A DNA stretch of 64,000 bases from Planctomycetota bacterium. Its GTDB lineage: Bacteria > Planctomycetota > JBFWNO01. The position numbers and the translations under genes are program-made. The stretch lies in NCBI GenBank assembly GCA_050251015.1, contig JBFWNO010000003.1, positions 1,411 to 65,410 of the forward strand. Reading direction: 5' to 3'. Positions within the stretch are counted from its first letter, which is position 1. Each line of letters begins with the position of its first letter. The notes below the pieces were generated by a model that was given only the letters and a program-made list of their open reading frames with translations, ran no database searches and was not told the origin of the DNA. Positions 10,076 through 50,705 of the stretch are shown one piece after another.

Positions 10076-10627
10076 CTACTTCCCATTGAGCTTCTGAATC
10101 GGCCCCCAATTATTCAGAAATGTGGAGAAGTCCCGCTTGCGGTCTGAGTTGTCCCCGAGGGCCAGGGCCAATTGGTCCTTGCGCTTGAGCCCACGGGACT
10201 CCCAGCACTGCCCATTCGCTGTCACATTGAGATAGCACTGTATAGTGCGGCCATTCCCGTGAATTGCCTTAATGCGCTTCAATAAATCTTTGGGTTTGAT
10301 GACGATGAATTCAGTGATTCGGCGCTCAAACCCCACGACAACGAAAACCCAATAATCCGCTTTGGACTTTGCGAGCTTGTCCTGGTTGATAGACCACCAA
10401 CCGCAGGCCCGCAAAGACTTCTGGAACAAAGATGAGAAATGGGTGGTCAGGAAGTCCCTTGAGAACTTCACCTGGAGGGAGATGGCCTTGTTGTTTTTGG
10501 AGTTTGTAACGAGCAGATCAATCCCAGTGTCTCTGGATGGGACCCATAGGTTGCAGCGTTTGAATGTCTTCTCGATGTAGTCCGCGACTACAAATTCCCC
10601 GGCATGCACTGTGAAGATGGGTTTCAT
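10076..10627 (-). CDS. small PD-(D/E)xK-type (DUF4365/Hjc-like layout) putative nuclease
   Basis: 183 aa, AT-richer than the flanks. Motif layout is GEFVVADYIEK ... SRDTGIDLLV ... ISLQVKFS, i.e. E ... D ... (Q)xK as in restriction-endonuclease-fold proteins. Confidence 0.5.
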   Translation of the reverse strand: MKPIFTVHAGEFVVADYIEKTFKRCNLWVPSRDTGIDLLVTNSKNNKAISLQVKFSRDFLTTHFSSLFQKSLRACGWWSINQDKLAKSKADYWVFVVVGFERRITEFIVIKPKDLLKRIKAIHGNGRTIQCYLNVTANGQCWESRGLKRKDQLALALGDNSDRKRDFSTFLNNWGPIQKLNGK

Positions 10628-10717: not shown

Positions 10718-11353
10718 ATGTGCGGCCGTTTCTCCTTCAATACTGAAGAAGCCAAGATCCGCATCCGCTTTGGGATCGACCTTGCGGGCATACCCCTACC
10801 CCACAATACCGACGTCCGCCCCACCCAACGCATCCTCGCCGTGGTCCATGGACCCAAGGGCCGCGCTCCCGCCTTCTTCCAATGGGGATTGATCCCGCAC
10901 TGGGCCAAAGACAAGGACATCGGCGTCAAGATGATCAACGCCCGCGCTGAAACCGTTGCCGAAAGGCCCAGCTTTAGAGGTCCGTTTTCGAAGCAGCGCT
11001 GCCTGATCGTGGCCGACAGCTTCTATGAATGGAAAAAGAATGGTGCGAAAAAGATCCCCTATCGCATTCGCCTCAAGAGCCATGAGCCCTTTGCGTTCGC
11101 CGGACTCTGGGATTCCTGGACGGGACCGGATGGCAAGGTGATCAAATCCTGCACGATCATCACGACGGAGCCCAATGCTCTGCTCGCGCCCATTCATGCT
11201 CGGATGCCGGTGATCTCCACAGCGGAATGGGAAAACGCGTGGCTGGACCCCGCAGAACGGGACATGAAGAAGTTACAGGGTTATCTGCGGCCCCTGGACG
11301 CGGCGCTGATGGAGGCCGAGGCATTGGAGGAGTTCCCGCCGGTTCTGCAATGA
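10718..11353 (+). CDS. SOS-response-associated peptidase (SRAP / YedK-HMCES family, abasic-site DNA-protein crosslink enzyme)
   Basis: Starts MCGRF (catalytic Cys2). Family motifs: RPTQRILAV, WGLIPHWAKD, INARAETV, RCLIVADSFYEW, PFAFAGLW, SCTIITTEPN, IHARMPV. Confidence 0.9.
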   Translation: MCGRFSFNTEEAKIRIRFGIDLAGIPLPHNTDVRPTQRILAVVHGPKGRAPAFFQWGLIPHWAKDKDIGVKMINARAETVAERPSFRGPFSKQRCLIVADSFYEWKKNGAKKIPYRIRLKSHEPFAFAGLWDSWTGPDGKVIKSCTIITTEPNALLAPIHARMPVISTAEWENAWLDPAERDMKKLQGYLRPLDAALMEAEALEEFPPVLQ

Positions 11354-11393: not shown

Positions 11394-14300
11394 TCAATAC
11401 TGCATCTTGTGAAGGTGATTAACGCGCCCCTTGAAGTATTTAAGATTAAGAGCTTTGGTCACGTGTATCACAGCGACAGTGTGAGTGTATTTTCCCCTGT
11501 TGGGGTAAATGTCCCTTTCATAACGCTGGAGGTTGATTAGAACGAGTAGATCCTTATTACATTTCACGAGGATACTCTTCAAGACAGAAGGGGTACATAA
11601 GAGACGCATCCCGAAATCGTCTTCATCTTCCCTATCCTGGCCTTCCCTGCCCCATGCCTGCGCGGACAAAACTGGACGACCACGGGCATCCTTCCAGATA
11701 CGGCCAAATGAGTCACCTTTTGATAGAGAGCAGAATTCAACAAAGTCATGTGCCAAATACGATCTGGAATTGGCCGTTGACACACTATATGGATCGTGCT
11801 TATCGAGACGAGCATCATCGGACGGACAAACAATCCAAGGCGTGTATTCACTCATATTGCCTCTAAAATATTCTCTATTTTCTTCGTCCACTTGTAAGCA
11901 TGGAACACAAACTACCATCGGCTCTTCGCAAACCAACTTGCGCGCGAGAACGGCTGCTCTTTGCGGAGAAACCAAGGCAGATGAAATACGAACTTTGACG
12001 TTGTCTGCGGATGTCCATTGGCCATCGACAATAAGACCTTTGCTCATTCGCGGTCCACTGTTGATTAGCGTCAGAATTTTCTCGCGATCGCCAATAATCG
12101 ACAGCTCATTTTTCTTTCTTTCAAGGAGAATTTTCGCTGTATCGAGTGGCGTTCTGTCAGTCCCATCCGACAACCAGAGTCCATCATTGCTCGTGAGGGT
12201 ATATCGACCAAACCACTCCCTCCAAGGATCGCCATCATGCCAGCTATCATCTGTAACTGGATAATCCTTAAGCAACCTGCCTGCAACAATGAAGAGAGCA
12301 TGCCAGCCTAGTTGCTGTCCATACGTTTGATATCGGGTAGTCATCTCGTAGGAAGCATGCCTGTATCGAGACTCTCGCCCAGGTGAGTCATGCATAGCTT
12401 CGACCTTCGGATCGATTGCATGGACAATTTCCGCCATCTGATCGACGACTTTCCAGCACTGTTGGCCGAAGACACGTGCAAGATTGTCTACGTCATACTT
12501 GTGAAAGTCGTAGTCGAGATGGAACTGGAAGGCCGGTTCCGGCTGAGATTTTGGGCGGCCTGAGTAGGCGTCTTCGTTTTTCCGAAGCCTCTTCTTGAGA
12601 CGCCCGTGCGGAGAGCGGTCAGTATCGCGTACACATGTCGCTTGCTTGGCAGGAAGATTCAAATGCCCAGCACTCATACATATATGTAACGCCTGGCCGG
12701 CAAAGTGCCGCATTAGGACATGCGGATCAATATCATTAACTACAATTTGCAGTAGCTGATCCCTATAGCGCGCAATCTGAGCTGGAAAGTCCGTCGCTAT
12801 CCTAGCCAACGCAATGAGCAGCCATAGACGAGCATGCATGTAGAAGAACGGAAGCTCTTTCGCTTGAAAGGGCCCCGCACCTACCTCACTGAACTTTTCA
12901 ACAACTTTATCAATAACATCCCAGCGTCCGAATTTTGCAAATGTTCGGAGACTGTGGGCTGCGCGCCACCGATCAACGGCGTATGGAGAACCGAAGACGC
13001 GCCAAATTAGGCCTGCACTGATTTTCTGAATATCACCCGGCGGATAATGCCCCTCTGTCCAAGGACCATCGACGACACTATCCACCAGTCTCGCAGCCTC
13101 ACTAGAAAGGAGTCGTCTTAATGCGAGCTGTCCCTGTCCTGCATCAGACTCAGGACAGATAAGCGTTGCAAAGGCGAGCCAGACTGAGCCTGGAACCATA
13201 TTGTCCAAACGGGCACAGTTTTTGATGAGTTTAATAATTAGATCTGGAATCGGAACACCTGTAAGATCAGATATCTCCTTGATGTTGGAGCCGGACAAAC
13301 GGCCATCCACAACAAGATCATGGGAATGCGCATTGATGAGAATGTCGGCCAGATCCGCATAAATATCTGTAAGCGCAACTGATGATCTATTCCATGCTTT
13401 TTTAGCATCCTTTAACTCGACCAACTTCCAGTAGAAAAAGAGGTTATCAAGCGTTGCAATATTATGAATATATTTCGAGCGGAAACGATATGGAACCTTC
13501 CCTCTTAGATTTACAAAGAAGTCGCCTTTCAAATCGCACATGTTTCCAAGCGCATTAAACTCATCGATTGCTTTGATTAAAGATGATTCATCTATAGGAT
13601 CTGTCTTCACCACAATATGTTTGAGATCCTTCCGATTTTTTTTTCCACGCTCGTCCATTACTTTACGATTTTTGAGATTAGGAAAACTTGCATGGTTATT
13701 TCGATCATTACGCATATCCCTCACCTTGGCGTAGCAAGCGCGCGCTGCTACAAGATGTCTTGCAACTTCTGAAGACGGTCCAAGGGCTTCGTGCGCAAGG
13801 TTACCGAGCGTTTCGAATGTATCATCCATCGCAACATCGGGGTTATTGTCCTGGAACTGGTCAATCAATTCCTCGATAACCACTGGGTCAGGACCCGCCT
13901 GCTGACGCAACGCTTGCGCGAACTCCTTCGAGCTAGAAAAATAATGCTCAACCGGATTGGCAAGGCGGTTTAGAGCAAGCGCGACTTTCGCATCAATTTT
14001 ATTATCTCTAAGCAAGCCAATTAGATATGGAAGCAAGGTAACATTCAGGGCAATCTTTGACCTATCGTCCCAACGACTCAGCTTTGCTAACCCCCTCGGG
14101 CCGGCAACCCTAGATAAACCATGTCCATACGCGCCCCAGAAGAATTTCTCAGGCTCTTCCCCAATATTAAGTTCACAGATATTTGACAACGTGTGGAAAT
14201 CATGCTCGTCAAGCTCACTACCCTTCATTTGGGAGGCGAATAGCAAAAGTTCATTAGTAAACTGGTAGTCTCCCGAACCTATCGCGTCCATCTGCTCGAG

Positions 14301-17300
14301 CCCATAACGAAAGTACTTCGATGCTTCGCATATGCTTGCTGGCAACATGGCACGACCCAACGCTCCGAATAAAGATGCTCTATAGCCGACTTCGTCTTCC
14401 CTTTCGATCAAGGCGCGAACCTTTATCGCTTGTTCACCAGCCAGCGTTTGCAGCATCCTTTTTTGCGCAAGGATCGCAACGATATGTATGCGGCTATGCG
14501 CTCCAATTTTCTGGTTATCGATGCTGGACAATAGACGTTTTACAGTAGCCAGCTTAAGCTCAGGACGGAACCAGAAGGCAAAGAGCATAATATCGAAGCC
14601 CAACAAACGAAAGAAATGTTCAATCTCGTCAGGACGGTACGAATCGACGCTTCTGGAAGATTTCTCCCATGCTTTGATCAGCTCGTCAAATGTCTTGTCT
14701 ATTAAACTTGGACGCGATCCGAGAACCGCCGAAAACGCCCTCGTTAGTGCAAGTAACGGCTCAAGCCGCTGGCTTAAAAACCGCCCTGCACTATGATGAG
14801 ACTCATTGCTAAGGGAGTTGGATTTGGCGCCCTGTCCTTCGTCTTTCGTTTTGTTATTTAAGCATTTATCTATTCTTTCTTTTGCCTTGTCACGGAACTC
14901 CTTCCCTGCAACATCTTTTCCAATGCGAGAACAAATATGCACAAGCTCTTGTGGCAGTAAATCCCTGTCATGCACGGGTTGATTCTTAATAGCAGCGTGT
15001 AGCGCGATTCGAAACAAGAAGGGGAAAACATCGCGGTTATAGGAAACATCACGGAAAGCCCAAAGGTTAGGGCGCTTATGTGGAACACGCATGGATATTG
15101 CCATCGCCTCCGACTTCATGCCCAACGACAACGCGATCGCTGCAGACTTGCGCAACCCATCCTGTAGCTCATTTGAACGACTTCGATGAATGGCATCGCG
15201 AAGGTCGAGATTTGCTGCACCCTTGCAACGATTTGCAAGCTTGGCTACCAAGTCTTTGCATTTCGCCTTCGAAAGTTCGTTGAATGATAGGGCGGCGGCC
15301 AGAACACCAATGCTTGAGAGCACACTAACGAATTTGTTATGCCGCAATGATTGTTTAGAACGAAGTGACTGCGAGAGCCTCAAATAACCAAATATGTGTT
15401 CGCAGATCTCATATGCATACCAGTCTTTCCACCGATTTAGATATTGCATGGCATCCACGCAACGACCCTGCGAGATCATAAAGAAGGGTATCGCAGCGAT
15501 GTCTGTGGGCTCGGGGATATGATCGCGAGGCTCGTGATCACGGCTTTCGCGTCTGTAATGTTCGATCCATTCATAGCCCAAGTGAAAATGACGGGATGCT
15601 TCATCAGAGTCGCCAGAAAGCGTGTTGACTATGGCAAGACGCGTATGACGGGCTCCCCGCCAACCAGTTTTTGTCTCAAAAAGACGCCTCATCGCATCCA
15701 TGTCCTGGGCAGCCACAATGAGATCTGGATGATCGCGAATATAATCCCTGCCGCGCTCATCAACTGCCGCGATAGTTGAAAGTTCGAGCAACAATCGGAC
15801 AAGACTGTTGTAATCTTTTTTTTGGGCGGCGTGAAGTGTTGCCGATTTAAGTCTGGAATATCGCACATTCCTCTTGCCGATAGCACTCGTGATGGTCGAT
15901 GGTATACGATCATCAAAGGCAAGTTTGATAAGTTGTTCTCCATCGTTAAGTTGAAGTAAGAGTCCGGGTAACGCACGTGCTGCGTAGACAGAAACATCCT
16001 GTCGTTCAAATAGTTTAGTGGCCACATGGAGAATTGCCTCGCGTGATGACACATACCGTTTATTGACAAATGTCTCAGTCGGTTCATCACGAAACATTAG
16101 CCCCTGGTTTGTGCGCTCCAGAAACGGCGACAAATCCGAAGAAAAGCTTTTGATCGCGTCGAGTGCCATGGTATGCGCACCGGCATATTCTTCAAGGGGC
16201 ACTGGCGGCGGAAGTACGGCAAGACCGGCAAGGAACGCATTTATATCTTTCTCCTGGCATCCTCGCAGATTTGCGGCGGAAAGCGCGTCAGTAATTCTTT
16301 TCTGAATAAGATCTTCTAGTTCAATTTTTTTATCGATCTCGGACTGATCCAGCACCCCGCCGCCTTCTTTGAGGAGATATTCAAGCACGCGTGGATTCCC
16401 ACCTGAGCGAGCATGCGCAACATTGATTTTTATCTCTGAGGGATTTTTTAGCCTTGTGCGCATAAATGATGCTGTTTCACTCTTGCTAAAAGGTCGCAGC
16501 TCATACTCATCGTATTTGGCATGGGTTACCGGCTTGCGTTCAGGACGACAGGAAATTATGAGTTTGACTCCAGGTATTGGCTCGGCGTCCAAGCATTCAA
16601 GGAATTTAATTGGGAAACAGTCTTCACTACGCCGACGCGCAATAATATCTGCATTATCTATCGCATCGATTAGCAGAGCTAGCTTCTTCCCTGGTGTATA
16701 TCTTCTTATCGTTTCAAGAGACTGAATAAGACGCCTTCTGAAGGTTTTTAGCAAGCCTTGTACATCTGGATTGTCAGGCAAAATAGGATCACAAAAGCCA
16801 CGAAAGGCTAGAGTATTCGCTATATGGATTACCCCTTTCTTTGGCAGGTGACGGGAATCCTCGGGAGACCGGTAAGCACCTCCACCAAAGCAATCGAAAA
16901 AAACAACCTCATAATTGTTAGCCAACACTGTTTCGAGCGTACTCATAAAAACGGTCTTGCCGACTCCACCAGTTGCATGAATAAGTAGTGGCATGGCCGT
17001 ATTCGAAACACGAGCAATGACTTCAGCAAGCTGTTCACGCTCAAGAATATTGCCGACTTTAGGGAGCGTGGATTCACACGGCAATAAATCCTTCGGATCG
17101 CCGATTTGTAATGCACCCAGTATGTCAGTGCGCGTTATCAAGTTTCTGCCTGTGCCCGCACAACCAGCCTTTTCACGTACGAGCTCCCTCAGTTTTCCAA
17201 GTCTTGCTGAAGCATTGGCGTCATATGTAGCAGACCAGTCAATGAGCATACGCGTCAGTTCATTCTTTGTTTCACGAAGGTTGCCAGATCGGCCAAAAAG

Positions 17301-17843
17301 TTTGAACTTCCGTACGAATGACGCCAGAGGCTTGCCACTTAAACCAGAATATTTCTCAAGCTGCTTTGCCTGTCGCTCAGCATCACCCTTGCATGACGAA
17401 CAAGAAGCCAAGCCATCCATTGCCTCTATGAGTGACTTACTGATCGGCTGGTTTGTAACGAGCTGAAAATCGAGCTTTGCTTCAACGGCTTTAACACCGT
17501 ATTTCCTCATGTAATCTACATATGTCTTGCCGAACTTCACCACAGTATTCTTCGCATCAGCCGCCCGAAATTCCTTGTCTTCGCTAGCAATCGAGTACTT
17601 GAACTGGACAATGGTCGTCTTATTAGCCTGTTTAAATTCAGGGTTGCCTCCGAAATACTTTGTTAGGTCAGCGATATCGATAGTTTGTGTGGATGCATGG
17701 ATCTGGTCAGCTGTTGACAATCCCTCCACGGCAATGGCTGTCAGATCGCTTTCTGGCAAAAGGAGTTGCATGGCCATTCGTGCCGTCCACGCTTCATGAA
17801 ATTCGTGACCGTCACGAGATGCTCTGACTTTTTCTACTCTCAT
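11394..17843 (-). CDS. giant Cap4/DUF4297-like nuclease - STAND NTPase - long C-terminal sensor protein (Avs/NLR-like defence candidate)
   Basis: Uninterrupted 2,149-aa ORF, visibly AT-rich. N-terminus GHEFHEAWTARMAMQLL...IAVEGL...IDIADL...IVQFKYS (PD-(D/E)xK of Cap4 type). Walker A LLIHATGGVGKT, Walker B LALLIDAIDNAD, ISCRPE, LRPFSKSE, GGNPRVL (GxP-like). About 1,650 further aa carry no nameable motif. Confidence 0.85.
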   Translation of the reverse strand: MRVEKVRASRDGHEFHEAWTARMAMQLLLPESDLTAIAVEGLSTADQIHASTQTIDIADLTKYFGGNPEFKQANKTTIVQFKYSIASEDKEFRAADAKNTVVKFGKTYVDYMRKYGVKAVEAKLDFQLVTNQPISKSLIEAMDGLASCSSCKGDAERQAKQLEKYSGLSGKPLASFVRKFKLFGRSGNLRETKNELTRMLIDWSATYDANASARLGKLRELVREKAGCAGTGRNLITRTDILGALQIGDPKDLLPCESTLPKVGNILEREQLAEVIARVSNTAMPLLIHATGGVGKTVFMSTLETVLANNYEVVFFDCFGGGAYRSPEDSRHLPKKGVIHIANTLAFRGFCDPILPDNPDVQGLLKTFRRRLIQSLETIRRYTPGKKLALLIDAIDNADIIARRRSEDCFPIKFLECLDAEPIPGVKLIISCRPERKPVTHAKYDEYELRPFSKSETASFMRTRLKNPSEIKINVAHARSGGNPRVLEYLLKEGGGVLDQSEIDKKIELEDLIQKRITDALSAANLRGCQEKDINAFLAGLAVLPPPVPLEEYAGAHTMALDAIKSFSSDLSPFLERTNQGLMFRDEPTETFVNKRYVSSREAILHVATKLFERQDVSVYAARALPGLLLQLNDGEQLIKLAFDDRIPSTITSAIGKRNVRYSRLKSATLHAAQKKDYNSLVRLLLELSTIAAVDERGRDYIRDHPDLIVAAQDMDAMRRLFETKTGWRGARHTRLAIVNTLSGDSDEASRHFHLGYEWIEHYRRESRDHEPRDHIPEPTDIAAIPFFMISQGRCVDAMQYLNRWKDWYAYEICEHIFGYLRLSQSLRSKQSLRHNKFVSVLSSIGVLAAALSFNELSKAKCKDLVAKLANRCKGAANLDLRDAIHRSRSNELQDGLRKSAAIALSLGMKSEAMAISMRVPHKRPNLWAFRDVSYNRDVFPFLFRIALHAAIKNQPVHDRDLLPQELVHICSRIGKDVAGKEFRDKAKERIDKCLNNKTKDEGQGAKSNSLSNESHHSAGRFLSQRLEPLLALTRAFSAVLGSRPSLIDKTFDELIKAWEKSSRSVDSYRPDEIEHFFRLLGFDIMLFAFWFRPELKLATVKRLLSSIDNQKIGAHSRIHIVAILAQKRMLQTLAGEQAIKVRALIEREDEVGYRASLFGALGRAMLPASICEASKYFRYGLEQMDAIGSGDYQFTNELLLFASQMKGSELDEHDFHTLSNICELNIGEEPEKFFWGAYGHGLSRVAGPRGLAKLSRWDDRSKIALNVTLLPYLIGLLRDNKIDAKVALALNRLANPVEHYFSSSKEFAQALRQQAGPDPVVIEELIDQFQDNNPDVAMDDTFETLGNLAHEALGPSSEVARHLVAARACYAKVRDMRNDRNNHASFPNLKNRKVMDERGKKNRKDLKHIVVKTDPIDESSLIKAIDEFNALGNMCDLKGDFFVNLRGKVPYRFRSKYIHNIATLDNLFFYWKLVELKDAKKAWNRSSVALTDIYADLADILINAHSHDLVVDGRLSGSNIKEISDLTGVPIPDLIIKLIKNCARLDNMVPGSVWLAFATLICPESDAGQGQLALRRLLSSEAARLVDSVVDGPWTEGHYPPGDIQKISAGLIWRVFGSPYAVDRWRAAHSLRTFAKFGRWDVIDKVVEKFSEVGAGPFQAKELPFFYMHARLWLLIALARIATDFPAQIARYRDQLLQIVVNDIDPHVLMRHFAGQALHICMSAGHLNLPAKQATCVRDTDRSPHGRLKKRLRKNEDAYSGRPKSQPEPAFQFHLDYDFHKYDVDNLARVFGQQCWKVVDQMAEIVHAIDPKVEAMHDSPGRESRYRHASYEMTTRYQTYGQQLGWHALFIVAGRLLKDYPVTDDSWHDGDPWREWFGRYTLTSNDGLWLSDGTDRTPLDTAKILLERKKNELSIIGDREKILTLINSGPRMSKGLIVDGQWTSADNVKVRISSALVSPQRAAVLARKLVCEEPMVVCVPCLQVDEENREYFRGNMSEYTPWIVCPSDDARLDKHDPYSVSTANSRSYLAHDFVEFCSLSKGDSFGRIWKDARGRPVLSAQAWGREGQDREDEDDFGMRLLCTPSVLKSILVKCNKDLLVLINLQRYERDIYPNRGKYTHTVAVIHVTKALNLKYFKGRVNHLHKMQY

Positions 17844-18015: not shown

Positions 18016-20562
18016 TCATTCCTTCGCCACCACCGTGTCATACAGCCCATAAGTCCTGAGTCCCTCATGGCTCTCGATGCCAGTGTAGCGCAGTGACGCG
18101 TCTTCGTACCGTCGGAACGCGAATACTGCCTGGTTCATCTGCTCGGTGTTGAAGACCTTGAGTCGCACGAGCAGGTGGAAGTCCTTAACCGCCAGCCCAG
18201 TGACGGCCAGAAACAGATCTGGTTCCAGCTTGGTGATCACGTCTTGGAGTGTGTTCTCGCGGAAATCTGTCAGGTACATGAACGCGGGGATCCGCGTTGC
18301 GAACTTGATCAGCTTCTCCTGCACAAGCTTGCGCTTGGACTTATACTCCTTTTCCTCCTCGGTGAGCTGCTTCTTCTGCTTGTCGGTCAACTCCTTGTCT
18401 CTGCCCTTGTTCTTGAGCTCCTTGACCTTGTCGCTCTTGTTGATGATGGTCTCGATGATGTTGTCGCCAAGCGCCCGCCATCCCTCAATGCGCTCAACGG
18501 CGGCCATCGCCTCAGGGTTGTCCAAGATGCGGCGTAGGGTTTCGTTATCCACATTTACGAGCAGTGCACTCTCCCATTTGCGGGCCAGCAGCGTGGCCGA
18601 GGTGCCAGCCATCGCGATATCGAGGATGCCACCCGCATCGATCTGCGTCATGTTTGCGCCGTCGTAGGCCAGCACCGGCAGGAATGACACGAGATCCTTG
18701 ACGGCATTCTCGGGGTTGGGCTCGGTGGGCGACAGGCCGATCCCGTACTCAGAGATCTGCCGTAGCGCACGCGTGGGCGCGAAGTCAAAAACGAAGCAGA
18801 CAGGCTTGAGCACCTCCTCCTCGTTCGGATTGTCGCCATGAGGGTTCTTAATGGCCCATGGCGACTGAACGCGGAATGCGGCCTGAAAGTAGGTTTCCGG
18901 TGACTTGAGGTTGCGTAGCATCAGGATTGATGACCACTGCGGCACCGTCACTCCGGTGGCGAGCTTTCCGCACGAGAGCGTGATGGTCTTGGTCTCGAAT
19001 CCGCTACCGAGGGCTTTGCGCACGGGCGGCAACGCCTCCAATCCAATGCCAGCCGAGGCGCCAGCGGCGATGATCACCTGATAGTCGCGCCAGAAGGTGT
19101 TGTGCCTCTCTGCCAGCAGGTTTGCCATCGCGTGGCAAGCCGCGACATTAGGGAGGAACCAAAAGGAGTGCTGAAGGTAGGGTAACAGGCGCGCGTCCGA
19201 ATATGGAAATGGCGGCCGAGTGCCCGTCTTCAGATGTTCGGCTGACTTAGGAGCATATCCTCCCCGAATGATCTCCAGCCACTTCTGCACATCGCTTGCG
19301 TGTTTGAACCGCGCCTTAGTCCCTGTGCCCGATGCCTCGAAGAAGGCGTTGAGATCGAACTCGTCGAACTCCCCAGCGCTTGCAATTGCCAGAAGTTCAT
19401 CCGGCATCTGGTAGGTGAGCAGGCGCATCTGTGGCAGTGCACCATAGGGGTTCCGGTTGCCGGGATTCCTGGCGGCGAATTCCTCCTTGGCACGCTGCTC
19501 ATCGGTGTAGGTCCAGTTGTAAATCTGTTCTTCGATAAATTCGCCGGTGGCCAACGCTTTGAACGGTGTTCCAGATAGGTAGAGACATGCCTTGGTCGTG
19601 ATGGGCAGGAACTCGGTTTCCCTTTCCAATGGTTCCTGCAAATCGGCGATTTTCTCTTTCTGGCCCTTGGCATCTTCCAACCGGGCCTCCACCCTGGAGA
19701 TCGCCTCTTCTTCGTCCTCGAATAGTTCCTTCGCACTATCCCGCCATGCCCCGAAGTGGTACTCATCGAAAACCACAAGGTCCCAATTCACCTCATGGAG
19801 CCATTCATTCTTGGCCTTGATGTTCCCGGCCTTGTCACGGCCGAGCAGGTCCTGGAAAGAGCCGAAATAGACGAGCGGGTTTTTCGAGGAGGCCTTTGTT
19901 GGGTCGCCACCTGAAGCTTTCGACAGGTATTGCCAGCCATCAAAATCCACATGGGATTTGAGGTCAATCTCCCACGCATCCTCAACGGCGGGTTTGAAAG
20001 TAACCACAAGCACTCGCTTGGCGCCGAGCTTTTTCGCGAGTTGGTAGGTGGTGAAGGTCTTGCCGAAGCGCATCTTCGCGTTCCAGAGGAACCGAGGGAC
20101 CGCATGCCTGTCCTCCTTCCAGATGGAATGGAAGTAAGCGTGCGTCTTGTTCACAGCCTCGATTTGCTCGCGGCGCATCGGGAAGGTCTCGTGATGCGTG
20201 CCGGTGAACATCTTGCCACAGCGCAGTTCGGCGAGCACGGTCTTCACGTCATTGACCGAGCAACGCATCCATTCCAGCTCGGCATTTTCAAATTTCTTCT
20301 TAGCGAGTATGGCGCGCACCTGGTGATCTGTGATGATCGTGCCATCGTCGCGCTCGGCTGGCTCGTCAAGCTCGATCTTGTAGTTCTTGATCGCGGCAGT
20401 CTTGAGCTGCTCGGCAACACGCTGCTTCACGCTCCGCGTGGTTTGACCAACTTTGAGTAGCCCCGCATGCGCCCTGTCGTCAATCGAATATGCGTAGATG
20501 CGTGGACGGGCTTCCGGTTTGGGCGCAAGGATTTCTTCTATGCGCTTACTCATCACCCTCAC
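18016..20562 (-). CDS. T5orf172/GIY-YIG-like domain fused to SF2 (DEAH, type III Res-like) helicase
   Basis: 848 aa. N-terminus RIYAYSIDDRAHAGLLKVGQTTRSVKQRVAEQL...ELEWMRCS matches the T5orf172/MUG113 pattern. Helicase motifs: MRFGKTFT (I), LVVFDEYHFGAW (II), LYLSGTPF (III), QAAFRVQSP (VI). K/E-rich coiled C-terminal region. 17-nt overlap with the upstream MTase gene. Confidence 0.85.
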   Translation of the reverse strand: MRVMSKRIEEILAPKPEARPRIYAYSIDDRAHAGLLKVGQTTRSVKQRVAEQLKTAAIKNYKIELDEPAERDDGTIITDHQVRAILAKKKFENAELEWMRCSVNDVKTVLAELRCGKMFTGTHHETFPMRREQIEAVNKTHAYFHSIWKEDRHAVPRFLWNAKMRFGKTFTTYQLAKKLGAKRVLVVTFKPAVEDAWEIDLKSHVDFDGWQYLSKASGGDPTKASSKNPLVYFGSFQDLLGRDKAGNIKAKNEWLHEVNWDLVVFDEYHFGAWRDSAKELFEDEEEAISRVEARLEDAKGQKEKIADLQEPLERETEFLPITTKACLYLSGTPFKALATGEFIEEQIYNWTYTDEQRAKEEFAARNPGNRNPYGALPQMRLLTYQMPDELLAIASAGEFDEFDLNAFFEASGTGTKARFKHASDVQKWLEIIRGGYAPKSAEHLKTGTRPPFPYSDARLLPYLQHSFWFLPNVAACHAMANLLAERHNTFWRDYQVIIAAGASAGIGLEALPPVRKALGSGFETKTITLSCGKLATGVTVPQWSSILMLRNLKSPETYFQAAFRVQSPWAIKNPHGDNPNEEEVLKPVCFVFDFAPTRALRQISEYGIGLSPTEPNPENAVKDLVSFLPVLAYDGANMTQIDAGGILDIAMAGTSATLLARKWESALLVNVDNETLRRILDNPEAMAAVERIEGWRALGDNIIETIINKSDKVKELKNKGRDKELTDKQKKQLTEEEKEYKSKRKLVQEKLIKFATRIPAFMYLTDFRENTLQDVITKLEPDLFLAVTGLAVKDFHLLVRLKVFNTEQMNQAVFAFRRYEDASLRYTGIESHEGLRTYGLYDTVVAKE

Positions 20563-22126
20563 CCATTGGTCGTATCATACTCTCAATGAATGCGACTTCG
20601 CTCTTCGTAATGCCATACTTCGAGTACAGTAGATCGTCAGTCCAAGTTCTGCTCCAGGACTGCTGTGGCACCCATGTGTAAGTCGATCGCAGGGCATGCT
20701 GGGTGATTTTTCTCAATGACACGAGAAAACGGAATAGGCGAGTCCGATAGTAGCTACTGAAACTCTGAGCTGACCTCTCGGATTTGAATGGAGCCACAAC
20801 AAGGTATGATTGAGTGCACGCTGATGGGGGCGCGGCTACAATCTCTTTGCCTAGGATTTGATGCGGGAAAGTCTCACCAGCCCCATAAGCTTCGGGCACT
20901 AGAACCTTCCATGTATCGATAGTGTTTGCATTCTTGCGAATGTCTCCACGCTTCATGAAACCGGTTGTTCGCTTGCCCTTACTGATCAGGTGGAGCTCAA
21001 TCTTGCCGCTCCCACCTTTCTCGGTCCAGCCCTCGAAGTTCGTCGCGATACCGAATGGCGTATCACCTGACACGAGCTCAAAGACCGAAGGCTCCTTCTT
21101 GGAGAGAACCTTCCTCAGGATTCCAAGTGCGCGTTCGTCACGAACGAAAACATCAAACTCGCCTAGCTGCCGATTGCGTTGAAAATGTCTTTCACCTCCG
21201 GCCATGCGTGTGACATTACAGGTCCCGTTGTATGCGCCATCCCAAAGGAAGTAGCACACGCCACCCTTGATTTGAACGCCGGGGAAGGCATCGCCAGAAT
21301 CGGGAAAGTCCGTGAGGCTACGGAGATGGCCTTCGCTGAGCATCTGCGCCCTGAACTCATCGAGCCCTCGCCCGCCCGCCATCCATCGCGAAGGCGTGAC
21401 AAAAGAGGCAAACCTCGGTTCAAGTTTGAGTGCCTGCTGGACAAAAAGATGGTAGATCGAGGAGTCGCTCGAACCCCCCGCGCCGCCAGTCATTTGGTAC
21501 GGTGGATTGCCGATGATCACATCGAATTGCATATTACCTCCAAACAACTCGGCTAGCCGAGCCTTTATATCGCTGGTGTGAATGAAAGCGTAGGCATGGG
21601 TTTCAAGTCCCTCCTCACGATCAAAAATCGACCGGGGCGCTCCGCAGTACCCACACTTCGCACCATCCCATGTGTGCTCCATGTGTTTGAACCAAATATT
21701 CCCATCATTGCTGGCAAACGACTTGGCAATGGAGTGCTTACCTTTGGCGTTCTTCGAACAATACACGCTCCGTCGCGCCAGCAGGCTCGTGAGGTGCGTG
21801 ATACCGATGCCGAACACCTGTTTTGTTAGAATGTGATTCACGCGTTCATCAAGGTTGGGTATTGCCTTGGCCAAGCCCTTGGTAAGGCGGCTGGTGATCT
21901 CGCGCAGGAACACGCCTGTCTTCGTACACGGATCAAGAAACTTCACCGTCTTGTCCGCCCATATGTTCGCGCCGCCTTTGTCTGCCGCCCATGCCTCGGC
22001 CAGCGTGTCCAGCATCTGGTTTGCAAATTCCGGTGGCGTGAAAACCTCGTCGTTGGAGAGGTTCGCAATACACGTCAGCACATCCGGGTTGCGGCCACGG
22101 AGCGCAAAGCCAACCTTGGCGTTCAT
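20546..22126 (-). CDS. Eco57I-like N6-adenine DNA methyltransferase with C-terminal target-recognition-like region
   Basis: 526 aa. Motif X EVFTPPEFANQML, degenerate motif I FLDPCTKTGVFL, catalytic motif IV FDVIIGNPPYQM. C-terminal TPSRWMAGGRGLDEFR...GVCYFLWD resembles RM-type methylases. Confidence 0.9.
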   Translation of the reverse strand: MNAKVGFALRGRNPDVLTCIANLSNDEVFTPPEFANQMLDTLAEAWAADKGGANIWADKTVKFLDPCTKTGVFLREITSRLTKGLAKAIPNLDERVNHILTKQVFGIGITHLTSLLARRSVYCSKNAKGKHSIAKSFASNDGNIWFKHMEHTWDGAKCGYCGAPRSIFDREEGLETHAYAFIHTSDIKARLAELFGGNMQFDVIIGNPPYQMTGGAGGSSDSSIYHLFVQQALKLEPRFASFVTPSRWMAGGRGLDEFRAQMLSEGHLRSLTDFPDSGDAFPGVQIKGGVCYFLWDGAYNGTCNVTRMAGGERHFQRNRQLGEFDVFVRDERALGILRKVLSKKEPSVFELVSGDTPFGIATNFEGWTEKGGSGKIELHLISKGKRTTGFMKRGDIRKNANTIDTWKVLVPEAYGAGETFPHQILGKEIVAAPPSACTQSYLVVAPFKSERSAQSFSSYYRTRLFRFLVSLRKITQHALRSTYTWVPQQSWSRTWTDDLLYSKYGITKSEVAFIESMIRPMGEGDE

Positions 22127-22812
22127 TCGGCCACCTTTGTGGTGTCGCCGGACGCGGCGGCGGCCAGCTCACTCACCGACATGGGTGGATAGGTCCTCTC
22201 TGGCGTGAAGATCTTGTGCTTGCCAAGAGGTGCGAAAAGCGGGTGCTGTTCGTTGAAGGACGACATGTGGGTAAGGATATCCAAAAGGAAATCGCGGCGC
22301 TGGAACTTCCCCTTGCCCAGGTAGCCCCACTCGGCAAAAGTGATCGGGCGGTCGTCATGGGTGAGCATCTTTAGCGCGTCACCGTGAACGAGGTTCAGGG
22401 ACAGAACACAGAACGCGGCGCGATAGGTTTCGTCCGACTCATCAACATTCAGGTATTCGGCAAGAATCTTCAGCAGATTCGCACGGCACTCAGCGATGTT
22501 GTCGGTCAATAGCTCAATGCCATAGATGCACATCAGCGCGAGGAGCGCATAGTGCCGCCGCTCGAATTCGGACTTGCCGTACTTGATTTCCACAGCGGCG
22601 AGCTTCCGTTTCAAAATCTTCACAAGAAAGTTGCCACTGCCGCACGCTGGCTCCAGAAATCGGGAATCGATGCGCTCCGTCTCGCCCTTCACCAAGTCGA
22701 GCATCGCTTCGACCATCCACTCCGGGGTGAAGACCTCGCCATGGTCGGAAACGCGTTGCCTGGATTTGACATAATTTTCAGAATGGCGCATGCGGTGACA
22801 TACTTCCATCAT
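22123..22812 (-). CDS. methyltransferase N-terminal half-like protein (SAM-binding motifs X and I, no NPPY)
   Basis: 229 aa. EVFTPEWMVEAML (motif X), canonical FLEPACGSGNFL (motif I), YGIELLTDNIAECRANL. No (N/D)PPY motif anywhere. ATGA overlap (22123-22126) with the downstream full-length MTase. Confidence 0.7.
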   Translation of the reverse strand: MMEVCHRMRHSENYVKSRQRVSDHGEVFTPEWMVEAMLDLVKGETERIDSRFLEPACGSGNFLVKILKRKLAAVEIKYGKSEFERRHYALLALMCIYGIELLTDNIAECRANLLKILAEYLNVDESDETYRAAFCVLSLNLVHGDALKMLTHDDRPITFAEWGYLGKGKFQRRDFLLDILTHMSSFNEQHPLFAPLGKHKIFTPERTYPPMSVSELAAAASGDTTKVAE

Positions 22813-24027: not shown

Positions 24028-25182
24028 CTACGTCAGTTCATCCGGATCATGAACGATTACGACTCCGTTGGGCAAGGCGTATCCTTTGCCTTCGAGCGAC
24101 GCTCTCTTGTCCCGAAAACCCCTGAGTGCTCTCAAAATTTCCGCCTTTAGAGAAGAACATGCATTTCCCAATAATGCCTTTCCTATCGGGCCATACAACC
24201 CAATCACGTCACCGAATGGTGTGATACCCAATGGCAATATCGACAACTGCCCCACTTGAGGCAACCGTGTGTTTTCGCCGAGTTCTGAAAATGGCGAGTG
24301 CATCTTTCGTCCAGCAACCAGTTGATCAGCAAGGATGTCATGCCCCATGAACTGAAGTGCTTTCGCGTAGGCGAGACGTATTACCATGTCCGATTCTGGA
24401 TTCTTCTCTTGCCCCCGTGATCCATCTGGGTCCTTGATTATCGTTGTGGTTTCGGATTTGGGATGAATTCCTTGGATACAGAAGTGTGTCCCTATGACAA
24501 CGCGACTACATGAGTTTCTGAGCAGCAGGTTTACTGGCTCGACATTCTGTACTTGCTTCCAACCTTCAGGATCAATTCTTTTCGTGATGCTTTTTTTGGT
24601 CCCGGTTGCGCCTTTGCTCTCAGCAAGTACGGCTTTCCCATCCGCACCTTCACAAAAATAGTCCGGCCTCGCCTCAGAAGTTGCATTGGCAACATATACC
24701 AACTCTCTGCGCTTGATACAGGCATAGGCGTCTGCGATGTGCTCTAGATCGAAGTGCTCGCGAAGGAGATAACATGAGATTCCTGCGGCTACTTCCTCCG
24801 ATGCGACAGCCATAAGCCGTGGATCTTTATCTTGGACACCTTCGTAAAATCGCAAGTCCGGATGTGATCCCGCAAAATCGCCACCATAACGAAACAGAGC
24901 AAACCACGATCTCGGATCCCAGGACGTGGTTGCGAGAGTCGTGGCTATGCCCGTTTCAATAAGCACGCGATGTAGGCTGACCTGGATTCTCCCGTTACTA
25001 GGTAGCGGTCGCTGCAACGCGAACGCTGGCGGCATGACCTCAACGATCCATTCACGCAAATCTGAGGGGCTTGGCGCGAACAGAATAGGGAACGGCGAGA
25101 GGCGGTGTCGTACCCGCCAGAATGGGCACCAGTGCTCAGCCAGTCGGGTATTGCGATTCAATATTGAAGGCGGAATCTTCAA
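24028..25182 (-). CDS. hypothetical protein with PD-(D/E)xK-like core (orphan defence-cassette candidate)
   Basis: 384-aa ORF (TTG start in the track, true start uncertain), AT-richer than the flanks. Candidate nuclease core EARPDYFCEGADGKAVLAESKGATG (PD...ExK). Flanked on both sides by tail-fibre 3' remnants. Confidence 0.55.
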   Translation of the reverse strand: MKIPPSILNRNTRLAEHWCPFWRVRHRLSPFPILFAPSPSDLREWIVEVMPPAFALQRPLPSNGRIQVSLHRVLIETGIATTLATTSWDPRSWFALFRYGGDFAGSHPDLRFYEGVQDKDPRLMAVASEEVAAGISCYLLREHFDLEHIADAYACIKRRELVYVANATSEARPDYFCEGADGKAVLAESKGATGTKKSITKRIDPEGWKQVQNVEPVNLLLRNSCSRVVIGTHFCIQGIHPKSETTTIIKDPDGSRGQEKNPESDMVIRLAYAKALQFMGHDILADQLVAGRKMHSPFSELGENTRLPQVGQLSILPLGITPFGDVIGLYGPIGKALLGNACSSLKAEILRALRGFRDKRASLEGKGYALPNGVVIVHDPDELT

Positions 25183-25374: not shown

Positions 25375-26418
25375 CTATATCTCCTTGACCTTCGTTGATG
25401 CCTGACCCTCCGGCTCCTCCAGTTCAATCAAGAAAAATGGCCGCTTGACGACCCCGATCTCATGCGCCACAAGGAGCCGCGCCAGTTGCTCCCCATTCAT
25501 CAGCCCCACAGGCACTGCATCAGACCGTTCGGCCTCCCGCTTCGCCCCGGGGCTGAAATCACTCGTCGTGATGATGAGCCCCTGCTCGTGCGTTCCAAGA
25601 CTACCACGCACCTGTTGCACCACTGGGGACTGGACATTGGCCTTCCACTTTTTTGCCTGTATGGCCATGCGGGTGCGGATCGTCCCGCCGACGACGAGAG
25701 TGGCCCGCACATCGATACCCCCATCGCCGCTCTTGCGGTACACCTCGATGTCATCGAAACCCATCTCGGCCAGAAGGCGCCCGATCAGCACTTCGAACTG
25801 GCCCCAGCTCAGCGCCAGCAGACGGGCCAACAGCGCCTTCCTGGCGCGCTGATTCTGCTGATCGATCTCTAAGACCAGACCCTGGCCCATCCATTTACTC
25901 AGCCCAAACATGCCGCGCGCATGTTGCACAAAGAGGGGTCCCTCCCCCTGGCGCTGGGCCCGCTTGCTTGCGGTATAAAGCTGTGCGGCCATGGTTGCAT
26001 CCGGAGTTTTCCCCTGCGTGTCGAGCCAACCCAGTTTGAGAGCCTTGGCAGTGATGTCGCGGAAATGCATTGGCTTTTTGTTGCCGAACTGTTCAAGCAC
26101 CTTTTCAGCCGCCTTGAGGAAGGAATATGTTGTTGCCGACACCTTGGTCTTTGGTTCCACCGGTCGCTTGGATGATGAGGACGGCTTTGCTCCATTTTCA
26201 TGCAGGCCAAAGGTCTGTGAGGCCACAAGCACAAACGGCGACTTGTCACCACTCTTCTTGATGTCTGAGTAAAGCCGGGCACCGACGGTCGCGGCGGGGG
26301 TCTTTCCTTCGCTACGCCAAAGTCCTCCGGCCGTCATACGCTTGGTGATCTCCCTGGCGTGAAGGGGCTCACCGGCTTCCCGGAGGATCTGTACAGCGGC
26401 GGCACGGACATTCATCAT
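25375..26418 (-). CDS. Mrr-family type IV restriction endonuclease with two N-terminal HARE-HTH domains
   Basis: 347 aa. Two HARE-HTH units (GLWRSEGKTPAATVGARLYSDIKK...FVLVASQTFGL; GWLDTQGKTPDATMAAQLYTASKR...FVQHARGMFGL). C-terminal Mrr_cat core: FEVLIGRLLAEMGF...SGDGGIDVRA...MAIQAKKW...GLIITTSDFSPGA. Confidence 0.85.
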   Translation of the reverse strand: MMNVRAAAVQILREAGEPLHAREITKRMTAGGLWRSEGKTPAATVGARLYSDIKKSGDKSPFVLVASQTFGLHENGAKPSSSSKRPVEPKTKVSATTYSFLKAAEKVLEQFGNKKPMHFRDITAKALKLGWLDTQGKTPDATMAAQLYTASKRAQRQGEGPLFVQHARGMFGLSKWMGQGLVLEIDQQNQRARKALLARLLALSWGQFEVLIGRLLAEMGFDDIEVYRKSGDGGIDVRATLVVGGTIRTRMAIQAKKWKANVQSPVVQQVRGSLGTHEQGLIITTSDFSPGAKREAERSDAVPVGLMNGEQLARLLVAHEIGVVKRPFFLIELEEPEGQASTKVKEI

Positions 26419-27053: not shown

Positions 27054-28211
27054 TCACGGCACCACCAAAAACCTATTCGCAAATGTGATCGTTGGGGCCC
27101 CCAATTTCACCCAATTACCCGACCCCGAGTAGGTCGCCACACCCGCCACATTCCCGGGCTTTTTGGTGCCCGAGTCTGCCACAAGGTTTCCCTGATACAG
27201 GGCAATTTGCTCGGCCAGATACCCCGAGGACCCCCCGACACCCGTGTAAACAGGATAGGGCTCCAGGGTGCCATCAGGCGTGAGCGGCGTGGTGTTCGAT
27301 GGATTGAGCTTCTTGAGGCCATCGGGCAAGGCAATCATTTTGACGATGAGACTTCCCTGAAACTCCACCGCTGATGTGGGCCAGCTCGATGAACCCGCTG
27401 GTGTGATGCGCACCCGCAGGGGAGACACTGAGAGCCCGGCAATTTTTCCCAGGAAGAATCCGGGAGAGTTGAATATGGGATTGCCCACCGCGAGGAGATT
27501 GCCTTGATAGGTGCCGAAGGAATAGACCTCTGCTGATGAGCTGGGAGCCGGGGTGTAGGTGCACTGCGACCAGCTACTACCCCCATCGTATCGAGCCAGC
27601 AGGGCTTGGTTGATGCGGGTGCGGCCACCGACATAAAGACTGCCGCCGTGGATCGCGAAGGCGTTGATGCGCTTTGAGTCCCCTCCAGGAAGCACGATGG
27701 GAGTGCCCACACTGACAAAGGATGATCCATCCCAGGCGATCATGTTGCCGAGACTGGTGAGAGGGCCAGCCTGGGTGAAAGACCCGGCAATGAAAAGGAG
27801 CCCGGCGTGAGCCTTGAGCGCATAGCAGGTGGCGTTGAGGCCAGTGCCCAGGGCGGACCAGGTGTTGGTGATGAGGTCGAATCTTGCGATCCTCGAGGCG
27901 GAGACGAAACCGTTGGGACCGACGACACTGAAGTTTCCGCCGATGTAGAGGGCGTTCTGGAAAATTTCCATGGCGTAGATCGATCCGTTGATCTCGTTGA
28001 TGGAGTTGCCCGTTGTCCCCACGCGGTTCCACTGCGACCCATCAAAGCGCGCTAGGCGCGATTGGAATGAGGGGTTGCCTTCAAGGTTAAAAAAAGTGCC
28101 GGAGGCGAGAAGATTTCCAGACAAGCTGTCGCCACCTTCCAGGCCACGCGCCCCGAGAGCGCTTTCAAGAAAGACCCCGAGCTTGGAGCCATGGAATGAA
28201 TCGAAACTCAT
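27054..28211 (-). CDS. tail fibre / receptor-binding protein with beta-propeller-like repeats
   Basis: 385 aa, last gene of the tail module. Repeats of the type LARFDGSQWNRVG, IARFDLITNTWSALGTG, MIAWDGSSFVSVGT, LARYDGGSSWSQ with LYIGGNF/LYVGG. ATGA overlap with the upstream tail gene. Confidence 0.65.
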   Translation of the reverse strand: MSFDSFHGSKLGVFLESALGARGLEGGDSLSGNLLASGTFFNLEGNPSFQSRLARFDGSQWNRVGTTGNSINEINGSIYAMEIFQNALYIGGNFSVVGPNGFVSASRIARFDLITNTWSALGTGLNATCYALKAHAGLLFIAGSFTQAGPLTSLGNMIAWDGSSFVSVGTPIVLPGGDSKRINAFAIHGGSLYVGGRTRINQALLARYDGGSSWSQCTYTPAPSSSAEVYSFGTYQGNLLAVGNPIFNSPGFFLGKIAGLSVSPLRVRITPAGSSSWPTSAVEFQGSLIVKMIALPDGLKKLNPSNTTPLTPDGTLEPYPVYTGVGGSSGYLAEQIALYQGNLVADSGTKKPGNVAGVATYSGSGNWVKLGAPTITFANRFLVVP

Positions 28212-29101: not shown

Positions 29102-29904
29102 CAGATGCCGATGTCCAGCGTCGAAAAATCCCCCAGCTCATAGACCTTCTCGATGTAAACCGCGATTGGCTTCTTGATGATCTGCTTGACCGCAGTATCC
29201 ACATCCTTGCCATACTGCACCCAGAGGTATTCCCAGCCCTTCTTGGCGGGCACGAGGATGTCGCCGACCTGGAAGGAGGTGCGGTTGGGTAGGCCAGCAA
29301 AGCGGAAGGTGATCTCCCAAAGCTCGCTGACACGGCGAGATCCCGAGGCTCCGAGGAAGAGGACCTCGCCCGCCTGGAATCCCTTGAACGGCGCGTCGTT
29401 CACCCTTCCCGTCAGGCGCATGATGATCCCGCGATACGCAAAGGTCACATCCGCATCTTCAAAATATTGTGTCTCGGTGAAGTTGTAAACGGGCACCGTG
29501 ATGTCGACGCCCTGCACCTGCTCGCCGTCAAAACCTATGGCGCCCTTCAATTCCACAGAAGCCGCTGGGCCATGCCTTGAAATCGTAGAAAGACTCTGGG
29601 TGATGTGCTGTTGGCCCCCACCCGTGTCGAAGGTTTCCACCGGGTCCGGGGTCGCCCCGTCGTCATCCACCTCGGGGATCCCGTAATGGGCCGTCACCCG
29701 CCAAGAGGTGGCATCCAGCCTCTCCTCCAGGATGATCTCTTTCCTGAGAAGGCCGCTATATATAAGAGGTATAGCGTTTTGGGCGTCTGTTTTGACCTGG
29801 GCCTCATCTATTGCGCCAGAAACAAGGTATTGGACCTCAGCAGTGGGCCGGGCCGAGACCGTTTCTGTGCGCCTGTCGAAAAGCTCGGTGACGATGGCGG
29901 GCAT
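29101..29904 (-). CDS. distal tail protein, putative
   Basis: 267-aa ORF directly downstream of the tape measure gene (1-nt overlap). Call by position. Confidence 0.5.
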   Translation of the reverse strand: MPAIVTELFDRRTETVSARPTAEVQYLVSGAIDEAQVKTDAQNAIPLIYSGLLRKEIILEERLDATSWRVTAHYGIPEVDDDGATPDPVETFDTGGGQQHITQSLSTISRHGPAASVELKGAIGFDGEQVQGVDITVPVYNFTETQYFEDADVTFAYRGIIMRLTGRVNDAPFKGFQAGEVLFLGASGSRRVSELWEITFRFAGLPNRTSFQVGDILVPAKKGWEYLWVQYGKDVDTAVKQIIKKPIAVYIEKVYELGDFSTLDIGI

Positions 29905-32446: not shown

Positions 32447-32898
32447 CCCGCTGGGATCGACGCCGACAATGCCGGAGAGCTCCCAGATGAGCCCCCAAGG
32501 GTCTGGATGGCCTCTTCCAGCTTCTGGTCCGCCTCCCTCAGGATCACCGCCTCGAGATCCCGGAGGGCCTTCAGCGCGCGCTGCAAGAGCTGTCTCCGGG
32601 ATTGGGGGAAAAAATCGACAAGCTCCTCCAGGAAGGCGGCTGTGGCGGCTTCGATGGCATCACCCGCTAGTGCGGATCCGAAGTCCTCGTCAGAAACCCC
32701 CTGCGCCTGGGCCTGCGGCTGGACCAGCACCCACAGGATGTCCGCCAGCAGTACGGGGTCGCCGACCAGTGTTTGGAGGAGGTCTCCATCGGCAATGGCC
32801 AGAAGATCCTTCCCAGTGAGGGCCCGCACCCTCTTGATCGTGGCGACATTGATGGCAATCTCCCACTTCCTCTGGCGCGAATCGGTGAAGGGCCTCAT
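32443..32898 (-). CDS. tail assembly chaperone (gpG-like), putative
   Basis: 151-aa acidic ORF between the major tail and tape measure genes, the canonical position. Confidence 0.5.
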   Translation of the reverse strand: MRPFTDSRQRKWEIAINVATIKRVRALTGKDLLAIADGDLLQTLVGDPVLLADILWVLVQPQAQAQGVSDEDFGSALAGDAIEAATAAFLEELVDFFPQSRRQLLQRALKALRDLEAVILREADQKLEEAIQTLGGSSGSSPALSASIPAG

Positions 32899-50675: not shown

Positions 50676-50705
50676 GTTTTCTCCTTGTGGTTGATGGTTA
50701 TTGGT

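Follow-up and report, generated by a model that had tools for sequence, protein, structure and literature searches.

The window analysed here is the whole 64,000-nucleotide stretch of contig JBFWNO010000003.1 (positions 1,411 to 65,410) from the Planctomycetota assembly GCA_050251015.1. On its minus strand lies a complete gene for a 2,149-residue protein that, judged by sequence comparisons and structural models, is a full-length, divergent relative of the antiviral STAND protein Avs3; we call it the avs3-like gene. The reference proteins used throughout are SeAvs3 of Salmonella enterica, whose structure has been deposited as PDB 8DGC, and KvAvs3a from Klebsiella variicola plasmid NZ_CP089387.1 (locus L001; NCBI-annotated Avs3a, 2,092 residues). 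The gene and the predicted parts of its product, with the evidence for each in brackets, are as follows; pLDDT is the predicted local distance difference test score and TPR the tetratricopeptide repeat.

11394..17843, minus strand: avs3-like gene, complete, with an ATG start, 2,149 codons and a stop codon at 11394-11396 (list of open reading frames and translation)
17094..17843, minus strand: Cap4-type PD-(D/E)xK nuclease effector, residues 1-250 (alignment to SeAvs3/KvAvs3a residues 7-240, PADLOC LmuA match, Foldseek, mixed alpha/beta model)
16044..17051, minus strand: STAND NTPase with nucleotide-binding, helical and winged-helix subdomains, residues 265-600 (invariant motifs, Foldseek, weak Pfam matches)
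13089..16043, minus strand: all-helical TPR-like sensor region, residues 601-1585 (helix-only model with pLDDT of about 80-90, colinear hhalign alignment)
11397..13088, minus strand: conserved C-terminal sensor module, residues 1586-2149 (BLASTP, phmmer and Foldseek matches to Avs3, strands in the model)
11409-12131, minus strand: beta-strand-rich domain within the C-terminal module, residues about 1905-2145 (model, helical up to residue about 1900)

The uninterrupted 6.45-kb frame that a preliminary description of this DNA had reported, with no mention of its strand, is real: a frame of 2,149 codons at 47.5% GC excludes a chance origin, and gene calling carried out independently on a Logan contig gave the same 2,149-residue product (P0121). 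As that description had also noted, the gene is AT-richer than its flanks (GC 0.475; the left flank has 0.57, the stretch at 17.8-27 kb 0.545, and prophage and host DNA 0.61). Its GC content at third codon positions (GC3) is 0.46, compared with 0.61-0.82 in neighbouring host, prophage and defence genes. The gene is therefore compositionally foreign, consistent with horizontal acquisition. A promoter and terminator scan gave no informative signal. We regard the ATG at 17843 as the correct start because homologues and SeAvs3 align with the protein from residue 6-7 onwards and share an invariant RxSRDGHE(F/Y)HxxW. The NCBI record MGE4157689.1 (from a Planctomycetota metagenome-assembled genome) starts at M25 and gives 2,125 residues under the name 'transcriptional regulator'; this start is 24 codons (17772-17843) too late and loses the conserved RASRDGHEFHEAW motif of the nuclease domain, so that both the name and the 24-residue-short start of the record can now be put right. 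All nine motifs quoted in the preliminary description are present in the product, at residues 12-28 (GHEFHEAWTARMAMQLL), 37-42 (IAVEGL), 55-60 (IDIADL), 78-84 (IVQFKYS), 292-297 (GGVGKT), 390-399 (LLIDAIDNAD), 430-435 (ISCRPE), 449-456 (LRPFSKSE) and 481-487 (GGNPRVL).

Profile and sequence searches converge on Avs3. In PADLOC the sole Avs model matched was Avs3a (PDLC02167, E = 2.5e-218, residues 6-966 to profile positions 7-965 of 2,090), and in NCBIfam the only meaningful match was again Avs3a (NF041816, 791.4 bits), making canonical Avs3a/Avs3b (AVAST type 3, antiviral ATPases/NTPases of the STAND superfamily) the best and only Avs match in both libraries. Membership in Avs1, Avs2, Avs4 or Avs5 was rejected since none of their models matched; Avs1 and Avs2, which differ from the window protein in effectors and TPR architecture, gave no match at E values up to 1. 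A sequence search of the PDB returned only SeAvs3 (8dgc_A, 2,092 residues), at E = 1.3e-145 with the single sequence (phmmer) and E = 8.5e-186 with a 25-member family profile. The matched stretches were residues 6-806 to 7-811, 1586-2116 to 1530-2054 and, weakly, 1154-1294 to 1117-1260, and the C-terminal module matched SeAvs3 residues 1530-2054 at E = 5.5e-44 in phmmer. With KvAvs3a, which the alignments suggest to be a close orthologue of SeAvs3, BLASTP gave 30% identity over residues 6-806 (E = 4e-95) and 26% over residues 1586-2111 (to KvAvs3a residues 1530-2049, E = 1e-44). When 25 members of the window protein's family (alignment A1) were compared with 24 canonical Avs3a proteins (A2) by hhalign, the two aligned as one colinear block of 1,985 columns, 22-2130 to 43-2102, at a probability of 100% and E = 1e-138. 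The assignment follows best-match logic, Avs3a being the only Avs model matched, rather than a tree of NTPase domains; Gao and colleagues are said in 2022 to have defined Avs3 by its clade in the STAND NTPase phylogeny.

Structural models, computed with AlphaFold2 from an alignment of 82 sequences of both the window clade and canonical Avs3a, agree with this placement. The model of residues 1-1100 (mean pLDDT 83.0) has a nuclease at about 1-250 and a P-loop NTPase at about 265-600, followed by helical repeats; both domains of the preliminary description are present, and their limits shift according to the model secondary structure, the nuclease extending well past residue 130. Foldseek against the PDB placed terminase-bound SeAvs3 first for this model (E = 2e-40), followed by the STAND-TPR protein 6mfv, Avs4 (8dgf), CED-4, Roq1, Cap4 (6wam/6vm6) and LmuA (9nxx), that is, Cap4 and LmuA for the N-terminus and STAND proteins for the centre. 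The candidate catalytic residues of the nuclease are E40, D59, Q80 and K82, in a D...QxK layout, and PADLOC gave a weak match of residues 75-245 to the Cap4-type nuclease LmuA (E = 5.7e-7). In the NTPase, G293, G295 and K296 form the Walker A motif, D393 belongs to Walker B, R433 is a conserved arginine and N483-P484 a GxP-like motif; Pfam gave only sub-threshold matches to AAA_16 and NPHP3_N.

The model of residues 1000-2149 (mean pLDDT 84.6, predicted template-modelling (TM) score 0.77) is helical to about residue 1900 and beta-rich thereafter. Its top Foldseek match was SeAvs3 with the PhiV-1 terminase (E = 8.5e-33, query-normalised TM score 0.58, 1,179 columns), and the other matches, none of them below 1e-3, were generic armadillo, HEAT and karyopherin repeats. 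The C-terminal region of about 1,650 residues, in which no repeat or motif had been recognised, thus corresponds in fold to the helical, TPR-like sensor of Avs3 followed by its beta-rich C-terminal sensor. Because the protein is colinear with the 2,092-residue SeAvs3 from residue 6 to 2116, this sensor is neither unassignable nor longer than in described Avs proteins, contrary to the earlier impression. The hidden enzymatic domain or additional recognition modules envisaged for it were likewise rejected: the model consists of helical repeats and one beta-rich domain, and Pfam, NCBIfam, PADLOC and Foldseek (below E = 1e-3) gave nothing there other than SeAvs3. The window protein resembles SeAvs3 in the order and size of its modules (Cap4-type nuclease, STAND, long helical sensor, beta-rich C-terminal sensor), with the nuclease residues, Walker A and B and many sensor residues kept. 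It differs in being about 60 residues longer (2,149 versus 2,092), in lacking an avs3b gene and in its low identity, about 30% over residues 1-806. On sequence and models, what had been put forward as the strongest candidate for a new variant or system is best described as a divergent member of a defence family that is already understood, and it leaves the current view of Avs systems unchanged.

Conservation was assessed in an alignment of 81 sequences (the window protein with 39 further clade members, and 41 canonical Avs3a proteins, KvAvs3a among them). Invariant across both clades are 91 residues, among them E40, D59, Q80, K82, G293, G295, K296, D393, R433 and N483-P484, together with a series of Trp, Arg, His and Asp residues at 1593-2064 in the C-terminal sensor. 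Per 100 residues, the protein shows an identity of 0.45-0.76 to its own clade, and identity to canonical Avs3a is 0.26-0.33 over residues 1-700, 0.09-0.22 over residues 800-1600 and 0.19-0.35 over residues 1600-2100. Full-length homologues (2,143-2,174 residues, 55-71% identical) form more than 120 clusters from Planctomycetota, Desulfobacterales, Aminicenantes, Bipolaricaulota and others. When one genome of each GTDB species was scanned by motif, the window clade turned up in no fewer than 480 species genomes from a wide range of phyla (480 of 599 listed stretches were confirmed); the 80 loci kept from it encode proteins 33-65% identical to the window protein. Cultured genera in the clade include Marinimicrobium, Pseudomonas (violetae, helleri, quercus and entomophila), Variovorax, Lysobacter, Luteimonas, Myxococcus and Xanthobacter.

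All 75 full-length relatives scored at least 1,194 bits against the window protein and at most 500 bits against KvAvs3a. Canonical Avs3a proteins share at least 47% identity with KvAvs3a and mostly measure about 2,090-2,100 residues, compared with about 2,150 in the window clade. Since bit scores and identities split in this way, the two groups are separate clades without a continuum, and by sequence the window protein falls in a discrete sister clade of canonical Avs3a. With residues 800-1600 as query, 322 representatives of 50%-identity clusters were found at E values up to 1e-3, and in every full-length match (about 2,115-2,215 residues) the region lay at about 800-1610, indicating that the architecture is fixed. 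Annotation pipelines call members of the clade 'NACHT domain-containing', 'ATP-binding' or 'hypothetical'. Avs3 architecture occurs in two or more deep, widespread clades, of which the curated Avs3a model recognises a single one. The window clade could show how far the helical sensor can vary with terminase recognition kept, or where the target shifts.

Taken together, the homology and fold shared with Avs3, the intact catalytic and nucleotide-binding residues, the solitary state of the gene, its defence-island and mobile context and its atypical composition make it probable that the product is a solitary Avs3-type antiviral STAND protein, triggered by terminase, whose ATP-dependent tetramerisation activates a Cap4-type nuclease. 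SeAvs3 binds terminase, tetramerises and thereby activates its nuclease (PMC13601566, PMC13581612), and the beta-rich 'C-terminal sensor' of Avs2 and Avs3 binds the terminase ATPase (PMC13601566). From SeAvs3 we carry over, by analogy, the terminase trigger, the tetramerisation, the cleavage of double-stranded DNA and the abortive outcome. In an uninfected cell the protein would be an inactive monomer. Upon infection by a tailed phage, its C-terminal sensor would wrap a newly made large terminase monomer, the beta-rich part lying on the terminase ATPase domain and the helical region on the terminase nuclease domain. Binding would place the STAND NTPase in its ATP-bound state and lead to a tetramer uniting four N-terminal Cap4-type PD-(D/E)xK nuclease domains, and the assembled nuclease would cut double-stranded DNA indiscriminately, so that the cell would die before phage release (abortive infection). 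SeAvs3 alone, with terminase, reportedly sufficed in the 2022 work of Gao and colleagues to reconstitute nuclease activity in vitro.

Other families share parts of this design. Avs7 also carries a Cap4 effector, and its activation logic (sensor clamping, an ATP-bound tetramer and Cap4 activation; PMC13581612) would be the same as that proposed here; Avs7 itself senses the major capsid protein (PMC13581612), and our searches returned no sequence or fold match to it. Avs1 and Avs2 are likewise proposed binders of the large terminase; Avs1 reportedly resembles Avs3 in structure, and Avs2 shares with Avs3 the beta-rich C-terminal sensor. The N-terminal fold and the D...QxK motif are common to Cap4 of the cyclic-oligonucleotide-based antiphage signalling system (CBASS) and to LmuA of Lamassu, whereas Cap4 and LmuA are joined to other domains, SAVED among them, and respond to cyclic nucleotides or to SMC-like partners instead of a STAND sensor.

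Several points weigh against a terminase-triggered Avs3 system. The score of 791.4 bits falls far below the 2,800-bit equivalog cut-off of NF041816, and mean identity to canonical Avs3a is just about 22%, dropping to 9-22% in residues 800-1600, the helical part through which SeAvs3 touches the nuclease domain of the terminase. In addition, the Avs3b of canonical loci is missing both from the window and from 85 window-clade loci, and a resident prophage in the window has its own gpA-type terminase, to which a broad sensor would be expected to react on induction. In a distinctly less probable alternative, the same machine operates in the sister clade with its diverged helical sensor tuned to another phage or cellular cue or to a restricted subset of terminases. 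That alternative draws on the low identity of residues 800-1600 (where gaps reach 22% in some stretches of 100 residues), on the discrete split of the two clades in bit scores, on the coexistence with the prophage terminase and on the fact that other Cap4-STAND-TPR families sense other proteins, as Avs7 does the major capsid protein. Nevertheless, the C-terminal module, which includes the beta-rich sensor of the type that binds the terminase ATPase, aligns with that of Avs3 at E of about 1e-44 with its Trp and Arg positions kept; terminase-bound SeAvs3 is the one structure on which the complete sensor model superposes; and Avs2 and Avs3 both sense terminase despite strongly different TPR regions. 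We therefore favour terminase as the trigger.

The gene also appears to act alone. In all three canonical loci compared (Klebsiella, Pseudomonas and Methylosinus), the two genes share about 70-110 nucleotides at the 3' end of avs3a, an overlap with avs3b that suggests translational coupling; the three avs3b genes (L001, 8646-9419; L170, 10203-10991; L171, 10236-10976) encode proteins of 246-262 residues that are 43-44% identical to one another. No Avs3b homologue was detected in the window by tblastn (best E 1.5) or in the downstream open reading frame at 10076-10627, and a literature search found Avs3b mentioned in no paper. When 956 neighbouring open reading frames were clustered, no family reached more than 8 of the roughly 84 loci; the gene of about 400 codons that precedes avs3a at two canonical loci also lacks conservation. 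Because there is neither an Avs3b nor a recurrent neighbour family, the avs3-like gene is best viewed as a stand-alone unit, as the preliminary description had proposed. Dependence on an unrecognised partner nearby, for which the upstream T5orf172-helicase gene or the methylase genes would be the candidates, would fit the consistent pairing of avs3a with avs3b at canonical loci and the helicase gene that ends 173 nucleotides upstream on the same strand; given that neither an Avs3b nor any other family accompanies the related genes, we consider it very improbable.

The genes flanking the avs3-like gene are the following (SRAP, SOS-response-associated peptidase; R-M, restriction-modification).

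10718-11353, plus strand: SRAP-family (YedK-like) gene, convergent with the avs3-like gene, with 40 nucleotides between the two stop codons
18016-20562, minus strand: T5orf172 (GIY-YIG-like) and ResIII helicase protein, 848 residues, part of a split type IIG-like R-M enzyme
20546-22126, minus strand: Eco57I-type methylase, 526 residues, part of the split R-M enzyme
22123-22812, minus strand: N6-methylase N-terminal fragment, 229 residues, overlapping the 526-residue methylase gene by 4 nucleotides
25375-26418, minus strand: Mrr-like nuclease gene (PADLOC PDC-S02, E = 4.8e-35; type IV methyl-directed restriction models)

The SRAP gene has a host-like GC3 of 0.73, which places the compositional boundary of the foreign gene within the 40-nucleotide spacer. 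On the other side, 18016-22812 looks, from its sequence, like a type IIG-like R-M enzyme split into two or three open reading frames, which together cover positions 154-800 and 1008-1358 of the PADLOC type IIG model PDLC03626. The Mrr-like gene is a further defence gene, situated between this cluster and the prophage tail genes.

Elsewhere, members of the clade adjoin integrases, transposases, toxin-antitoxin, type I R-M, Eco29kI R-M, DruA and TIR genes. A census of the two nearest genes on either side of the homologue at 37 loci (148 genes, counted without a background control) was dominated by defence and mobile-element families. The commonest Pfam families were SIR2_2 (5), ResIII (4), Mrr_cat (3) and phage integrase (3), and the commonest PADLOC matches were ThsA-like proteins, type I R-M subunits, DrmD, PLD-helicase and BrxH. 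Homologues of the window clade thus lie beside defence and mobile-element genes, as expected of a defence-island family. These neighbourhoods, together with an intact 2,149-codon frame of homologue-like length, catalytic and nucleotide-binding residues that are all kept, 55-71% identity across phyla and the failure to find a DNA-binding domain in the protein, make it highly unlikely that the gene is decaying or serves a non-defence role as a 'transcriptional regulator' or housekeeping STAND signalling protein, a role suggested by the name of the NCBI record and by Pfam matches that are just sub-threshold and AAA/NACHT-like. The family was found in none of 50,697 phage records, in one IMG/VR contig and on 20 plasmids. 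This near-absence from phages agrees with the reported absence of Avs3 from phage hotspots, presumably through autoimmunity (bioRxiv 10.1101/2024.10.15.618418).

The other large element in the window is a prophage, whose neighbouring terminase and portal the preliminary description had correctly recognised. Its named features, with the tRNA gene at its right end, are listed below.

27054-28211: tail protein, without relatives in INPHARED or IMG/VR
29904-32225, minus strand: prophage tape measure
32895-33335, minus strand: tail tube
36090-38102, minus strand: protease-capsid
38086-39492, minus strand: lambda-type portal
41538-43994, minus strand: gpA-type terminase
44991-46223: ParB-methylase
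49905-51509: AAA_24 and DUF3799 recombination genes
52449-54098, plus strand: large serine recombinase
54041-54117, minus strand: tRNA-Asp, its 3' 58 nucleotides overlapped by the recombinase open reading frame

The avs3-like gene lies about 9 kb beyond the tail genes of this prophage. It shares the minus strand with the R-M, Mrr-like, tape-measure, tail-tube, protease-capsid, portal and terminase genes listed for 18-44 kb, so that downstream of the tail genes the defence genes take the place that the b region has in lambda. The avs3-like gene, together with the R-M and Mrr-like genes at 18-26.4 kb, could be cargo of the prophage, lying on the late-operon strand between the tail genes and the distal attachment site. 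It would then be a terminase sensor borne by a phage whose own packaging relies on a gpA-type terminase, a possibility that we hold to be rather doubtful. The left border gave no guidance: neither a 3' remnant of tRNA-Asp nor any repeat resembling an attachment (att) site was found anywhere in the window. A second GGTTCGAGTCCC at 53828 was rejected as an att site, as it lies within coding sequence and is within chance expectation. The open reading frames at 1.7-10 kb and 22.9-25.2 kb gave no PHROG or Pfam signal, and that at 24028-25182 had no relatives in INPHARED or IMG/VR.

Related phages were similarly uninformative as to the tail-distal end: a search with the tape measure yielded one weak locus, and the terminase has at least 600 relatives in IMG/VR (63-72% identity, on contigs often of 30-50 kb), whose examined flanks stop before that end. 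The phage core of the window spans 27 kb (27-54 kb), which, set against the 30-50 kb contigs of its relatives, is a weak hint that the prophage includes further DNA. The ends of two Logan contigs from run SRR27751816 are at most suggestive as to the borders. One (L087) stops at 54072, inside tRNA-Asp, which could mark a prophage junction. The other (L088) is a separate 7.5-kb contig (10596-18159) carrying the avs3-like and SRAP genes, which breaks off inside the helicase gene at 18159 and inside the open reading frame 10076-10627 at 10596; either strain variation near the cassette or nothing more than low coverage could explain these breaks.

Were the avs3-like gene prophage-borne, its clade would have to tolerate the terminase of its carrier, given that Avs3 is reported to be absent from phage hotspots. 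Such tolerance might come from a narrowed or shifted specificity of residues 800-1600 or from silencing in the lytic cycle, and the phage would then turn the gene on competing phages. The prophage terminase that shares a cell with the avs3-like gene offers a simple test case for self-tolerance.

Finally, the late region of the prophage contains a low-GC (about 0.50) island at 39720-41356, on the plus strand between the portal and terminase genes, encoding a 314-residue SEC-C protein (with the motif at its C-terminus) and a 247-residue protein for which no match was found; the island is possibly a moron insertion.

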